Origin: Bdellovibrionales bacterium
Lineage (GTDB): Bacteria > Bdellovibrionota > FAC87 > UBA2466
DNA: 64,000 nt
Direction of reading: 5' to 3'
Assembly (NCBI GenBank): GCA_009692515.1
Contig: SHZA01000003.1
Span: 11,966-75,965, forward strand
In this document: in pieces, positions 56,376 through 60,925 of the stretch
How positions within the stretch are numbered: position 1 is the stretch's first letter
How the letters are laid out: each line of letters begins with the position of its first letter
Position numbers and translations under genes: made by a program
The notes under the pieces: model-generated
What the model was told of the DNA's origin: nothing
Seen by the model: the letters and a program-made list of their open reading frames with translations, nothing else
Database searches by the model: none

Positions 56376-57929
56376 TTGGAATTTATCATTATGAGATTTA
56401 CAGTTTTTGACATGATAGTACGACTAGTAGGGGTGCTTTCTTTTTTGACCTTGATGAGTTGTGGGAGATTAGTCACCGAATGCGGTGGGACTCCACTTAA
56501 TATCTCTCATCTAACCCAAATTCAACGAGCCGCCTTTACTTCAAACACCAAAGCCTCTCTTGTTATTCCGAATCCTCTGGATGCTACAGGAAATATTGGT
56601 ATTCAGTCTATGGACTCTTCTTTAATAAATGCTTTGAGTGACCTTTTTCTTCCTAACCTATCTGCAGGAAGCCGTCTGGAGAATAATTTTTTAAAGGTTA
56701 GAATTAACTCGATTAATGATTCTCCTGAAATTTTAGCGACTCCAAATTCAAATGGGCAATATGCGTTTCCGATCACCGACATCCATTACGGAGAAACCAT
56801 GGCCTACCATAGTATGAATGCGATCCAGACCTATGTGGAGGCACTGGGATTTCAAACCAATAAAGCCCGTCCACTTTTTGTTATGGTAAATGCTACTGGC
56901 TCGACAAATAACCCTGAAGAGGTAAATGCTTTTTATAGTCATAATTACTTCGATACTACAGCGCCAAGAACGCTAAAAATATATGGAGACACCGCCTTTT
57001 CGCCCAGACAAGACCGAGATATCTACTGGCATGAGTTTGGCCATTATTTATTAGAGAGTTTAACTTCTGATAGAGGGGTTGATTTTGCGGGGGATTCGGG
57101 ATCAATATTTTCGGAAGGTGCGGCGATCCATGAGTGTATTGCTGATTATGGAGCTGAGAGTCTGTCGGGAAGGGGATATCTTGGCAGATGGATCGCTAGA
57201 AATTTTTCAGAATTTACAGCCGGATCACCTTTGAGATCTGCAGAAGATAAAAATGATGATTTTAACAACTTCAGTAAGGTGGCCACCTTTGATTCTACGA
57301 AAAAAAATCTTAATCGCTATAGAATTGGAGAATGGTGCACCCGGGTACTCTGGGATATTCGTCGTCAAATAGTGCAGGAAAATTCGAACGAGGGGAGATT
57401 CTATGCAGATCGGATGATCTTTGCAGCCGCTTCACTTCTTAAGAGAGATACCTCTGTTACCTCATTGAAAAGCGCCCTTCTTCAGGCGGATGAACAGCTC
57501 AACTGTGGAATTCATAGTCATTCGGTAAAAAATGCTTTCGAGTCGAGGGGATTTTCATCCGATATTCCCGCTCTTGCTTTACCCTTAAAACTTAAGGCCT
57601 CTATCGTTTGGCTACGAGATGAAAGGGGACAACTAACACGAGAGTTTTCAGTTAGTTTTATTCTCACAAATCCCAATTCAGATAGAGCACGAAATGTCAG
57701 ATTAATTCTGGAGTCTACCGATGCTAGAATTTCTCCGGTGGTGTATCAGCAGTCTTATGGGGATTTGGGTTCTGGAAAAACTGTCAGCGTGGGAGGCAAT
57801 AGCTCTCTACCCATCGATTACTCTGTGGTGGGATCGGTAGCGCCCAATCAGAACTATCAAGGCGCTCCATTTAATTTGAGAATAAAAAGTGAGAATGCTC
57901 CCGATGCAATCATCCCGGGGGTCTTATGA
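56376..57929 (+). CDS. Secreted/lipoprotein zinc metallopeptidase, thermolysin-like (M4-like) catalytic core
   Basis: Signal peptide with LMSC lipobox; HEFGH (HEXXH) followed ~30 aa later by GAAIHECIADYG resembling the M4 third-ligand NEAxSD segment. Confidence 0.55.
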   Translation: MEFIIMRFTVFDMIVRLVGVLSFLTLMSCGRLVTECGGTPLNISHLTQIQRAAFTSNTKASLVIPNPLDATGNIGIQSMDSSLINALSDLFLPNLSAGSRLENNFLKVRINSINDSPEILATPNSNGQYAFPITDIHYGETMAYHSMNAIQTYVEALGFQTNKARPLFVMVNATGSTNNPEEVNAFYSHNYFDTTAPRTLKIYGDTAFSPRQDRDIYWHEFGHYLLESLTSDRGVDFAGDSGSIFSEGAAIHECIADYGAESLSGRGYLGRWIARNFSEFTAGSPLRSAEDKNDDFNNFSKVATFDSTKKNLNRYRIGEWCTRVLWDIRRQIVQENSNEGRFYADRMIFAAASLLKRDTSVTSLKSALLQADEQLNCGIHSHSVKNAFESRGFSSDIPALALPLKLKASIVWLRDERGQLTREFSVSFILTNPNSDRARNVRLILESTDARISPVVYQQSYGDLGSGKTVSVGGNSSLPIDYSVVGSVAPNQNYQGAPFNLRIKSENAPDAIIPGVL

Positions 57930-58627
57930 ATCCTAAAATAAAGAGAATTAAAATCTTCTGGGGGATGATGATAGTATTTTGCGTATTGAGTCTCTCTTTT
58001 TTCTCAGATTCCAGGGCTATCGGCATTCCATTAAAGGCCAAGAGGGTTTTTGACGGCCTAACGGGGGGGCTTATCACAAAAACCAACCTCGAACTATTTA
58101 TAGACCCACCTTTGCAAACCGCAGTGAATTTCGATGCTTTGCAGCTGGCAAATCAATTTATTATTGATAACCCGGGTCTGTTTTCCATTAAATCTTACCA
58201 TCAACTTAAGGGTGAAACTTATGAAAATCCTTTGGGAACTAGAGTGAACTATCAAGTTTTTCAAAATGGGACTCCGATTTTAGGATTTACAATTCAACTG
58301 ACGGTAGGTGTGGATCACCAAGTTTCAATTGTCTCTAATGAATATCATCCCATTGAAAGAGTAGAGATGGATGAAAGGTATTTTTTGTCGGTAAATGAGA
58401 TTTTAGAAGAGCATAATCAAAGATTTAAACTTTCAGTAGCTGACGAAGATGAAGGGCGGGAATCACATATTATTATTGTTGGTCCTAGCTACGCTAAAGC
58501 TGAGATGGGTACTGTAGTTTCAGTAATTGAAGTTGGCTCTAAGCAAAAAGCTCCGATTGAGGCGGTTTTTAGTTCGAAGAGTGGACAACTTCTAGCTCGT
58601 CGTGTGGCAAAATCGGAATTTCATTAA
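57926..58627 (+). CDS. Secreted protein overlapping the metallopeptidase gene (possible propeptide/PepSY-like partner)
   Basis: Signal peptide; ATGA overlap with upstream protease gene; beta-rich ~200-aa domain; family assignment weak. Confidence 0.35.
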   Translation: MNPKIKRIKIFWGMMIVFCVLSLSFFSDSRAIGIPLKAKRVFDGLTGGLITKTNLELFIDPPLQTAVNFDALQLANQFIIDNPGLFSIKSYHQLKGETYENPLGTRVNYQVFQNGTPILGFTIQLTVGVDHQVSIVSNEYHPIERVEMDERYFLSVNEILEEHNQRFKLSVADEDEGRESHIIIVGPSYAKAEMGTVVSVIEVGSKQKAPIEAVFSSKSGQLLARRVAKSEFH

Positions 58628-58705: not shown

Positions 58706-59278
58706 TTATTTATTTCTAAGAGCGATCGCATCTTTAGGGATCTCTCTTGGACTTGAATTTCTATCGGTAAATAATCTTACATAGACCGATTCCCTCACAA
58801 TTTTTTCTTGGGCTATACCTTGTTCTGCTTGAATACTGGCATCGGTATGACAAATATAACCTCTATTAAACTGAGAAAGTTGTTCGGCTGAGAACTCACA
58901 GGGTGAAATAGTGACTCCTGATCTTAAGATGGAAACTGTAAATTTAGTAGAGTCGCTCTGTACAAAGGCCCATGGGATTTCGAAGGTGCGATTAATTTCT
59001 TGGCTTTGTCCATTAGCGATGGGCCAACGGCGTCCTTCTTCTGGTAGAGTTATTTTATTTCCATCGGCGAACGAAATCTCAAGTCTTGCATTAAAGGTTT
59101 TGTCTAAGGCTCTTCCGGAGGTTTCTAAATTATATTTTTGAATGGTAATAAATGTTCTAAATGGTTTTATTTCGGTGATTACCCCTGTAATGGGCTCTGC
59201 GGATTGCGTCTCAGCGTGTGCTGTAATGTTGAGGCCAGTTGCGATGATTAGGCCCAATAAAAAACTAGCTAGTGACAT
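58706..59278 (-). CDS. Hypothetical secreted protein
   Basis: Signal peptide MSLASFLLGLIIATGLNITAHA; no family recognised. Confidence 0.4.
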   Translation of the reverse strand: MSLASFLLGLIIATGLNITAHAETQSAEPITGVITEIKPFRTFITIQKYNLETSGRALDKTFNARLEISFADGNKITLPEEGRRWPIANGQSQEINRTFEIPWAFVQSDSTKFTVSILRSGVTISPCEFSAEQLSQFNRGYICHTDASIQAEQGIAQEKIVRESVYVRLFTDRNSSPREIPKDAIALRNK

Positions 59279-59303: not shown

Positions 59304-60083
59304 TTATTTAGTGTTTTGAAAAGTGGTTGAAATTTTTTGACCGACCACATTTAGCCAGCCACTGCCCCATCTCGCCTGCGTAGTTTGGGGTAGAATTCCT
59401 GAAACTGGAAATGGACTTAAATTACTAATTCTAAATCTGTGAATAGTGGGATTTTTAGTAGTGTAGGTGACCTTTAAAATATCGGCCGCGTAAGGAGCAG
59501 GATTTATCGCCTTAAAAAGTGCGATCTGATCGGTGCTTGTTAAGACGATACCTGAAACGGTCACTTGATATTGAAATATAAAGGTTCGAGAGGGTTCAGG
59601 GATATTACTAGGCGCATTCATAGTAATACTAAGTCTTCCCCAAATATTATTAGGACCTGCCTGACCTCTATAATTAATAGGAACTGGGTTTTCTGGGCGT
59701 CCCTCCTGTCGAATCAAGGTAGGAACCTGGGATTGACCGCTAGGGGTCACCATATAGTCAAAAGATTTTTGTTCTGAAACGGTAAAGTTAATAGTTCCTG
59801 TTAAATTATTATTCATCGCAGTGAAGGCGGCCGTTGATGTATTGGCCTTTAAAAGTGAGTTACCAGGCAAAGAGTCTTCAAGAAAAGAAAGGGTGGCGAT
59901 AGGAGTTCCTACTGAGGGGGATATGGGTTGGGGGGCACCGGTAGTTAAGGGGATAGGATTGGTAGCGCTGTTCTTAGTTCCACAGGCAGAAACTAAGAGT
60001 AGGGAAAAGGCTGCAATCCCTATTGCTGAAAGTGTCTTCTTTAGAGTCATTCGAGTTTCTATATGTGTTAAATTAGTTTTCAC
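59304..60083 (-). CDS. Hypothetical lipoprotein
   Basis: Signal peptide with lipobox LVSACG; co-directional and adjacent to 58706..59278. Confidence 0.4.
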   Translation of the reverse strand: MKTNLTHIETRMTLKKTLSAIGIAAFSLLLVSACGTKNSATNPIPLTTGAPQPISPSVGTPIATLSFLEDSLPGNSLLKANTSTAAFTAMNNNLTGTINFTVSEQKSFDYMVTPSGQSQVPTLIRQEGRPENPVPINYRGQAGPNNIWGRLSITMNAPSNIPEPSRTFIFQYQVTVSGIVLTSTDQIALFKAINPAPYAADILKVTYTTKNPTIHRFRISNLSPFPVSGILPQTTQARWGSGWLNVVGQKISTTFQNTK

Positions 60084-60346: not shown

Positions 60347-60925
60347 ATGAAACGTAGTTTGAGATACTTTAGAAGTTCAGTACTTGTTAATAAAAAAGAG
60401 ACTCACCCTGTATGGAGCTTCGTGCTTCGAAATGGAAGAACTTCATTGAAGATACTTCTATTGGGGACTGCTACCTTTTTATTGAGTACTGGCTCTGCCT
60501 ATGGTGGAGTTTCTTCATCTGTTTCTAGATTTGCATTGTCACGTAGTCCCTCTTCCTTAATTTTCCCACAGGTTGAAACTGAAAGAGATAGCAGTGATAT
60601 TTTGGCTTCTTATCCGGCCTATTTAAAATTTGTCGTTGAAGTAGGAAAAGATGTTGATCACTCGAGCACTGCTAGATTAGTCAAAATTTTTGAGTCATTA
60701 AAAAGAAGAAGTCCTAAAGGAGCCGCCCTTTTTTTAAAGGGATTAAGATTTGAATTGGTTCAAAAAGTAGAACTCATGGGAACAGACTCACGGGAAATTT
60801 CTACCAGCAATCCTATCTATAGAAGATGGATTCAAAAATATTTAAAAGAATGGGTAAGGGAAGCTGATGAACATTTATTTCGAAGTTATAGCGAATCAAA
60901 AAATGAGTTGGCTCTAGCCGAATAA
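60347..60925 (+). CDS. Hypothetical secreted protein
   Basis: Hydrophobic signal-like segment (…ILLLGTATFLLSTGSAYG); no family recognised. Confidence 0.35.
   Translation: MKRSLRYFRSSVLVNKKETHPVWSFVLRNGRTSLKILLLGTATFLLSTGSAYGGVSSSVSRFALSRSPSSLIFPQVETERDSSDILASYPAYLKFVVEVGKDVDHSSTARLVKIFESLKRRSPKGAALFLKGLRFELVQKVELMGTDSREISTSNPIYRRWIQKYLKEWVREADEHLFRSYSESKNELALAE

Follow-up and report, generated by a model that had tools for sequence, protein, structure and literature searches.

The window analyzed here is a 64,000-nucleotide (nt) stretch of DNA from a Bdellovibrionales bacterium (assembly GCA_009692515.1, contig SHZA01000003.1, positions 11,966 to 75,965 of the forward strand), and the subject of this study is a pair of overlapping genes on its + strand, between positions 56376 and 58627. 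The first gene encodes a zinc metalloprotease with a predicted thermolysin fold, which is M36-like, carries a predicted lipoprotein signal and lacks a prodomain. The second encodes a partner protein of 233 amino acids (aa) that is very probably a free-standing homologue of the FTP-PepSY prodomain of M4 and M36 proteases. Based on sequence comparison and structural modeling, we propose, with a probability of roughly 0.72, that the pair constitutes a naturally split zymogen, in which an M36/M4-type mature enzyme would be served by an FTP-PepSY prodomain encoded by the overlapping downstream gene.

The gene pair and its junction

The protease open reading frame (ORF) occupies 56376..57929 and comprises 517 aa from a TTG start, while the partner ORF occupies 57926..58627 and begins with ATG. 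The two overlap by the four nucleotides ATGA, the partner ATG (57926-57928) lying on the protease TGA (57927-57929). The sequence at this boundary is ...GTCTTATGAAT, also given as ...GGGGGTCTTATGAAT. A G-run, GGGGG (57917-57921), is located within the last protease codons and is followed by the ATGA at 57926-57929, and the interval 57917..57929 on the + strand represents a candidate site of translational coupling. The G-run resembles a Shine-Dalgarno element and lies 5-9 nt upstream of the partner ATG.

For comparison, 46 related loci were used in which the protease gene is complete and followed by further DNA, 40 of them distinct; with the window's own locus, these numbers become 47 and 41. 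A Shine-Dalgarno-like, G-rich 4-mer was found within the final protease codons at 37 of the 41 distinct loci. The near-invariant Gly515 by the C-terminus of the protease (57911..57925) supplies this element, so that part of the conservation of Gly515 may be exerted at the RNA level.

At all 46 related loci, a homologous ORF of 195-240 aa overlaps the protease stop codon, either by 4 nt (ATGA or GTGA) or by 1 nt (TAATG or TAGTG). The overlap holds across protease identities of 39-92%, and the arrangement is far beyond chance. The related loci were all derived from metagenome-assembled genomes, whose labels are Bdellovibrionota, Bdellovibrionales, Pseudobdellovibrionaceae, or unresolved "Deltaproteobacteria" or "Proteobacteria". 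Like prodomains in general, the partner evolves faster than the enzyme: measured against the window's copies, mean identity is 30% for the partner and 47% for the protease. A sequencing frameshift, or a single fused gene, was considered and rejected, as the stop codon and the overlap are kept at all 46 loci and the partner has an export segment of its own.

The protease probably starts at the ATG at 56391, giving a product of 512 aa and placing the TTG of the longest ORF, at 56376, 15 nt too early. The ATG is preferred because homologues begin at the equivalent of M6 (MRF...); the closest database homologue, with 91% identity, is likewise 512 aa long. No clear Shine-Dalgarno sequence was found upstream of either protease start (TTG 56376 or ATG 56391), and scans for promoters and terminators gave no signal above chance. 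In the databases, the partner is named "hypothetical protein [Bdellovibrionales bacterium]", and the named protease homologues are likewise hypothetical.

Features of the protease and of its downstream partner

The zinc-binding and catalytic motif HEFGH of the protease occupies residues 219-223 (57030..57044, + strand). Downstream, the segment GAAIHECIADYG (residues 248-259) contains an ExxxD motif, E253-C-I-A-D257 (57132..57146, + strand), which supplies the third zinc ligand, a Glu, and the structural Asp. Residues H219, E220, H223, E253 and D257 are invariant in an alignment of 29 homologues that are 41-91% identical. The protease was further compared with P0172, a fused pre-pro M4 enzyme in which the Pfam domains FTP, M4 and M4_C all score above the gathering threshold. 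Profile alignment by hhalign of the protease family (profile A1) with P0172 gave a probability of 98% and E = 2.7e-14; in it, HEFGH is paired with HEYVH, and E253 with the Glu in DEAYAD. HEFGH also aligns with the HEFGH of a fused Myxococcaceae enzyme. The protease thus possesses HExxH together with ExxxD, the combination by which the M36 zinc site is defined (PMC6117016).

Within the Pfam collection, the protease reached a score of 23.3 bits for the Peptidase_M36 family (PF02128), which is exactly the gathering score of that family, and the match was confined to residues 213-393; precomputed PF02128 matches exist for some homologues and are absent from most. The M4 families Peptidase_M4 (PF01447) and M4_C (PF02868) gave no match to the protease at E <= 1, and a search of PDB sequences with the protease alone returned no match. 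The AlphaFold2 (AF2) model of the protease has a predicted local distance difference test (pLDDT) score of 87.4. Its top Foldseek matches were four M36 fungalysin structures, namely 4k90_A (E = 4.3e-8, 413 columns), 7qp3, 7z6t and 7qfy, at 14-15% identity; the M4 structures 1bqb, 4ger and 3nqy_B came next, and the M4 enzymes among the matches were aureolysin, ProA, gentlyase and vibriolysin MCP-02. Counted from the sequences, the spacing from the second His to the Glu is 30 residues here (H223 to E253), 28 in L033 and 20 in P0172. Thermolysin, with a spacing of 20 residues from H146 to E166, sets an M4 standard from which the window protease departs, and partly because of this difference, 30 against 20, the protease is not filed as M4. 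Judged by its Pfam match and modeled fold, it is a distant relative of both M36 and M4, nearer to M36 (fungalysin); the lack of an M4 Pfam match, combined with the strong profile alignment to P0172, indicates a relative of M4 rather than a member.

Near the N-terminus, residues 26-29 form a lipobox, L-M-S-C (56451..56462, + strand), in which Cys29 is followed by Gly at position +2. Going by this motif, the mature protein would begin at Cys29 and be lipidated there. Cys29 is nearly invariant in alignment A1, and a lipobox matching the strict pattern lies 182-201 residues ahead of HExxH in 37 of 43 distinct family proteases; the six that miss it comprise five near-matches and one protein cut by a contig end. 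The +2 residue across the family proteases is G, T, S, A or L, and never D. The mature-type protease domain begins approximately 8 residues past the lipobox Cys, and Pfam detects no FTP domain in the protease. The catalytic domain would thus come close to the very start of the mature chain, which leaves no space for a prodomain. Correspondingly, HEFGH is found at residue 219 in the window protease versus 468 in the fused Myxococcaceae relative. The long N-terminal, FTP-containing prodomain that is a feature of M36 enzymes is absent here and from every member of the protease family.

These results bear on an earlier note, made from the sequence of the window alone, which had described an M4-type protease with a downstream Glu-ligand segment, an unusual N-terminal region and an overlapping downstream gene. 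Both genes, the overlap and the zinc site were confirmed, including the third ligand, on which the note had made its assignment depend. Its M4 label gives way to a position nearer M36 by Pfam and fold. The supposedly unusual N-terminal region proved to be a predicted lipoprotein tether joined to an N-terminal subdomain of the usual kind, and it is the prodomain that the enzyme lacks.

The C-terminal part of the protease, approximately residues 400-517 (57573..57926, + strand), is modeled by AF2 as an all-beta, immunoglobulin-like sandwich with pLDDT 90-97. Local Foldseek matches of this region were immunoglobulin-like sandwiches, including TRAP-beta, PCuAC and the macroglobulin receptor-binding domain. 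Apart from the lipobox Cys, the protease has four conserved Cys residues: two are invariant (C254 and C321) and two nearly so (C36 and C377), and C254 adjoins the zinc ligand Glu253 (HECxAD). These cysteines probably form disulfides in the exported protein.

The partner gene (57926..58627, + strand) belongs to a family that was harvested from the downstream ORFs of 54 related loci and later extended by an exhaustive search. The 40 other distinct downstream ORFs are all homologous to the window partner (BLAST E <= 6.5e-9) and share one plan; a word-indexed homologue search retrieved only 3 partners, and 6 with a profile query. The window partner has a basic N-terminus followed by 18 uncharged residues (residues 10-27, 57953..58006, + strand), which may serve as a signal anchor or a signal peptide and lie within an AF2 helix spanning residues 3-26. 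A basic n-region with 13-18 uncharged residues was detected in 38 of 41 partners, usually followed directly by charged residues and with no A-x-A site. Next comes a variable linker, approximately residues 28-69 (58007..58132, + strand), which is unalignable and length-variable in the partner alignment A2 and has pLDDT 29-46.

Two helix-plus-sheet domains follow in the AF2 model, which was built on 6 sequences; the first is confident and the second of low confidence. Domain 1, of FTP type, spans approximately residues 70-143 (58133..58354, + strand) and consists of one helix and a four-stranded sheet (pLDDT 82-88), with H92, P102, G104, Q113, G120 and Y140 as its conserved residues. Domain 2, which is PepSY-like, spans approximately residues 155-226 (58388..58603, + strand) and ends in the family motif RASDGQ.L (SSKSGQLL in the window). 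The C-terminal tail, K229-S-E231-F232-H (58610..58624, + strand), corresponds to a family consensus R-x-E-F and is a candidate active-site-occupying segment. R229 shows almost no variation across 120 sequences, nor does E231 across 29, and R-x-E-F sits 9-10 residues beyond the last PepSY strand. Among 39 complete partners, 13 end exactly at EF, and an E followed by F, I, L or V occurs within the last 14 residues in 33.

The decisive line for an FTP-PepSY identity is the match of the partner family to fused pre-pro-enzymes in an exhaustive HMMER search of 1.84 billion representative proteins. This search returned 138 matches, nearly all free-standing proteins of 170-260 aa. The partner profile also matched two fused pre-pro-enzymes, P0172 over its N-terminal residues 1-226 (E = 6.5e-8) and P0177 over its FTP-PepSY region (E = 8.9e-5), as well as P0179 and P0180 (E = 4-5e-4). 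All four have a Pfam FTP match above the gathering score; PepSY lies above it in P0180 and just below it in P0177 and P0179. As profile A1 aligns residues 37-395 of the window protease to residues 222-519 of P0172, directly behind the stretch matched by the partner, the two genes together tile one conventional zymogen, with their order swapped.

Structural comparison points in the same direction. The top three of 350,542 PDB chains in the Foldseek search with the partner model were 3nqz_A (2.6e-4), 3nqy_A and 4k90_B; the first two are prodomain chains of the autoprocessed M4 vibriolysin MCP-02, and the third is the prodomain chain of the M36 fungalysin. The only PDB sequence match of profile A2 was the cleaved MCP-02 propeptide, which is weak (E = 0.62), and the 120-sequence profile A5 also matched the propeptide region of pre-pro-thermolysin (residues 53-218), again weakly (E = 0.24); both matches are in register through the PepSY end motif. 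By hhalign, the first block of the partner aligns with residues 65-139 of the fused Myxococcaceae enzyme (E = 5.7e-5), overlapping that enzyme's Pfam FTP match, and the partner profile gave no significant alignment to the post-FTP region of two fused outgroup enzymes (E = 0.46 and 0.17). Among the 120 partner-family members, Pfam detects FTP in 9 (best E = 6e-5), PepSY in 1 and DUF4901, weakly, in 11.

The partner family comprises at least 138 sequence clusters, and the overlapping pair is present at every examined locus with an intact protease gene. The partner thus has the FTP-PepSY fold of a prodomain, as far as the models and profile matches indicate, and departs from a classical prodomain in that covalent N-terminal attachment and removal by processing are lacking: at 46 of 46 related loci it is encoded apart from the enzyme, by a downstream gene that has a start codon and an export segment to itself. 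The earlier note had expected a secreted, beta-rich partner, had suggested an FTP/PepSY-type protein and had asked for conservation of the pair in relatives; the export segment, the two modeled helix-plus-sheet domains, the prodomain matches and the universal overlap bear it out on each count. Its reading of the partner as a trans-acting propeptide, chaperone or inhibitor is supported, the foldase or inhibitor role itself being argued by analogy.

One further protein of this type, P0173 (L057, 1117..2199), has 360 aa and combines a partner-like FTP-PepSY region (E = 1.2e-6) with a Cys-rich C-terminal extension. No protease gene adjoins it on its 2.9-kb contig.

Proposed function and its alternatives

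By analogy with fused systems, the partner probably assists the folding of the neighbouring protease in trans, inhibits it, or does both, and its most likely function would be that of a combined trans-acting folding template and inhibitor. FTP-PepSY prodomains are described as both chaperones and inhibitors (PMC13556211; PMC6490944). In the proposed mechanism, the two genes would be co-transcribed and, as the overlap suggests, translationally coupled, yielding roughly matched amounts of protein. The protease would be exported by Sec and lipidated at Cys29. The partner would also be exported and probably tethered to the inner membrane by its N-terminal helix, via the flexible linker of about 40 residues, with an anchor and a cleaved signal both compatible with the sequence; anchoring is suggested, speculatively, because the hydrophobic segment is usually followed directly by charged residues and no A-x-A site is present. 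In the periplasm, the FTP and PepSY domains would close around the catalytic domain in the manner of the fused prodomains of 3NQY and 4K90, acting as folding template and inhibitor. The R-x-E-F tail could lie in the active-site cleft like a prodomain-enzyme junction, as a mimic of the junction or of the product. This placement is suggested because the tail resembles the acidic-Phe junction proposed for the M36 protease Mpr1, D353|F354 (PMC6117016), and because its spacing from the last PepSY strand is about that of the cleavage site in fused enzymes. Activation might then occur by degradation of the partner or by the lipoprotein pulling away to the outer membrane, which is speculative.

Several observations weigh against a split zymogen. 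The window partner alone has no match in Pfam (E <= 1), in NCBIfam or among PDB sequences. Domain 2 is modeled with low confidence, and its PepSY assignment draws on weak hidden Markov model matches and on fold searches. With the prodomain gene downstream, the protease would emerge first, an order that fits an inhibitor or a post-translocation foldase better than a co-translational template. The surrounding genes are also conserved: hisS lies upstream at 33 loci, a homologue of the downstream gene ORF190 is present at 33 of 37 distinct loci, and the neighbourhood is broadly syntenic in the clade, so that adjacency of protease and partner is by itself weak evidence. Finally, in one lineage (L058, 3253..3504, and L059; GCA_964603655.1 and two sequencing-run assemblies), the protease is cut to an 83-aa in-frame remnant, consisting of residues 101-183 and a C-terminal stub, which still overlaps the partner start by 4 nt. 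Neither the partner (248 aa) nor the ORF190 homologue is damaged there. Such a state could reflect recent decay of the protease or a partner role independent of it.

The two last points would suit a reading in which the partner is an envelope protein of PepSY type, its task unconnected with the protease and its adjacency due to conserved synteny only, and PepSY domains do occur in many non-protease contexts (YpeB, FoxB, lanpepsy). Such a reading is, in our estimation, scarcely credible. The overlap is found at 46 of 46 related loci, whereas other neighbours are lost at some: the pair is intact where hisS is absent (L003, L004) and where ORF190 is absent (L001, L004, L011, L029), and by sequence comparison it is the most stable unit of the region. 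In fold and sequence alike, the partner is closest to prodomains, and specifically to those of the superfamily to which the adjacent protease belongs, and the two genes exactly tile a fused zymogen. For the same reasons, the universal overlap, the less constant neighbours and the tiling, simple synteny as the sole cause of adjacency was rejected.

Gene order also bears on whether the partner folds the enzyme at all. A partner that is only an inhibitor or immunity protein, with a self-folding protease whose active site is masked at the producer's envelope until delivery, would have a parallel in emfourin and RhpC of protealysin-like M4 enzymes or in the propeptide-like free inhibitors of other clans, and operon-encoded specific inhibitors of propeptide-less M4 enzymes do exist (PMC9505478; PMC6490944). 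The downstream position of the gene and the conserved C-terminal R-x-E-F tail suit an active-site blocker. Free-standing proteins with both Pfam FTP and PepSY, of 237 and 249 aa, were moreover found in two unrelated organisms (L055, 359..4714; L056, 2523..7151), 43 nt downstream or 70 nt upstream of M4 proteases of 1199 and 1269 aa. Each of these proteases keeps its own FTP prodomain, so the free copy is not needed as sole folding template, and such stand-alone prodomain paralogues beside M4 genes may represent a wider, undescribed pattern, possibly an evolutionary intermediate. The gene order and these free copies keep the inhibitor-only reading alive. We nevertheless consider it unlikely: all family proteases lack a prodomain, yet thermolysin-family enzymes are described as requiring their prodomains in order to fold (PMC6490944; PMC13556211), and for an enzyme that folded unaided, so strict a 1:1 coupling at all loci would be less expected. 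The data at hand cannot separate an inhibitor-only role from that of a foldase plus inhibitor.

The N-terminal hydrophobic helix and flexible linker of the partner also recall membrane-anchored escorts of the "type II secretion system (T2SS) chaperone" class, such as Lif and CpaB, and the partner might accordingly sort the lipoprotein protease by handing it to an export route. Its architecture would fit the published definition of an adjacent, co-regulated gene whose product has an N-terminal transmembrane helix and a periplasmic domain (PMC4713064; PMC13381987). The fold of the partner is, in contrast, that of a prodomain and not that of Lif or of CpaB (SRPBCC), and its hydrophobic segment may be a transmembrane anchor or a cleaved signal. 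The protease, for its part, is a predicted lipoprotein, and lipoproteins normally use Lol rather than T2SS. Sorting as the principal role is thus highly improbable, though it overlaps with the split-zymogen explanation and does not exclude it.

Within the split-zymogen proposal, a more specific and tentative version, which we would not favour at present, casts the partner as a reusable, inner-membrane-tethered steric foldase and inhibitor, an intramolecular chaperone turned intermolecular. The R-x-E-F tail would serve as its plug, release would follow extraction of the lipoprotein to the outer membrane or surface, ORF190 might be a further component, and L055 and L056 would be intermediates. 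If true, it would amount to a natural experiment in converting a single-turnover prodomain into a multi-turnover chaperone.

ORF190 (58706..59278, - strand) encodes a convergent, 190-aa secreted protein, and its homologues were found directly after the partner at 33 of the 37 distinct loci with enough downstream DNA. These homologues show 39-74% identity, and are thus better conserved than the partner, at a gap of -13 to +189 nt from it. Alignment A4 reveals two invariant Cys and many invariant polar residues, and no Pfam or PDB-sequence match was obtained. ORF190 may be a third component of the system or merely a syntenic neighbour. Further along the window, a 259-aa predicted lipoprotein (59304..60083, - strand) is conserved at 13 related loci, and a 192-aa hypothetical protein (60347..60925, + strand) has a C-terminal 110-residue part conserved at 34. 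Together with hisS and aspS upstream, these two neighbours indicate that the whole neighbourhood is syntenic across the Bdellovibrionota clade.

A split zymogen would provide a conserved natural system in which to ask whether a prodomain is needed for folding, inhibition or both, whether it can turn over, and how release proceeds without autoprocessing. It would be a clean test case of how an intramolecular chaperone can become intermolecular, although it is unlikely to overturn anything. The proposal would also give a function to a protein family now labelled hypothetical in predatory Bdellovibrionota, and suggests how these bacteria might avoid being harmed by their own surface or envelope protease. 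For practical work, expressing these proteases would need co-expression of the partner.

Comparison with known systems

Prodomain-assisted folding is a textbook example of intramolecular chaperoning, in which the chaperone serves a single time before it is destroyed, and thermolysin-family prodomains have long been shown experimentally to work when supplied in trans. Full-text literature searches, whose coverage leaves out most subscription journals, turned up no account of an M36/M4-type enzyme that lacks a prodomain and has its FTP-PepSY partner encoded separately, which amounts to absence of evidence and no more.

The fused prodomains of M4 and M36 enzymes (MCP-02, 3NQY/3NQZ; the Aspergillus fumigatus fungalysin Mep, 4K90; thermolysin; LasB) have the same fold and the same order of FTP, PepSY and tail as the partner. 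They are its best structural and sequence matches, and their cognate enzymes share the fold and zinc site of the window protease. The partner differs from them in forming a polypeptide of its own, which brings an export signal or anchor and a linker; its gene follows that of the enzyme instead of being fused upstream, and no autoprocessing is needed for separation. The window protease is also a predicted lipoprotein, in contrast to the enzymes with fused prodomains.

The SleB-YpeB pair of Bacillus spores follows the same PepSY logic in trans. As described, the client is a cortex peptidoglycan-degrading enzyme and not a protease. YpeB contains three PepSY domains and is not known to have an FTP domain.

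The membrane-anchored foldases Lif/LipH, which serves lipase A, and CpaB, which serves the metalloprotease CpaA, may be the closest parallel to how the window pair works: each is a dedicated partner encoded beside its enzyme, with an N-terminal membrane helix and a periplasmic domain. Their folds are unrelated to that of the partner, CpaB being an SRPBCC protein and Lif helical. Neither shows homology to a prodomain from the family of the enzyme that it serves. Lif/LipH and CpaB are needed for the folding or secretion of their clients (PMC13381987; PMC4713064). Adjacency to the client gene, by which T2SS chaperones are defined (PMC4713064), is seen here as an overlap, from which co-regulation may be inferred.

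Among two-gene operons, the window pair resembles emfourin (M4in)-protealysin and RhpC-RhpP, in which a thermolysin-family enzyme without a classical FTP-PepSY propeptide has an inhibitor or chaperone gene just downstream (PMC9505478; PMC6490944). Emfourin shares the operon position, forms a 1:1 complex with protealysin and binds at the active-site region (PMC9505478). RhpC is an acidic protein of 99 aa, predicted to be cytoplasmic, with no reported link to propeptides, and its gene lies 20 bp downstream without overlap (PMC6490944). The partner falls outside this family, having 233 aa, an export or anchor segment and a different fold, as opposed to about 100 aa and a cytoplasmic location.

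The concept of an independent prodomain homologue acting on a mature enzyme is also represented by the cathepsin-L propeptide-like proteins of MEROPS family I29 (PMC6010012). Systems of this type involve different protease clans and folds, and their targets usually keep their own prodomain, in which they resemble L055 and L056 more than the window family. Further free-standing propeptide-like inhibitors include the subtilisin-propeptide-like proteins of family I9 and Spi of SpeB. Set beside all of these, the parts and the principle of the window pair are familiar, whereas its split, order-swapped and apparently membrane-tethered form is not.

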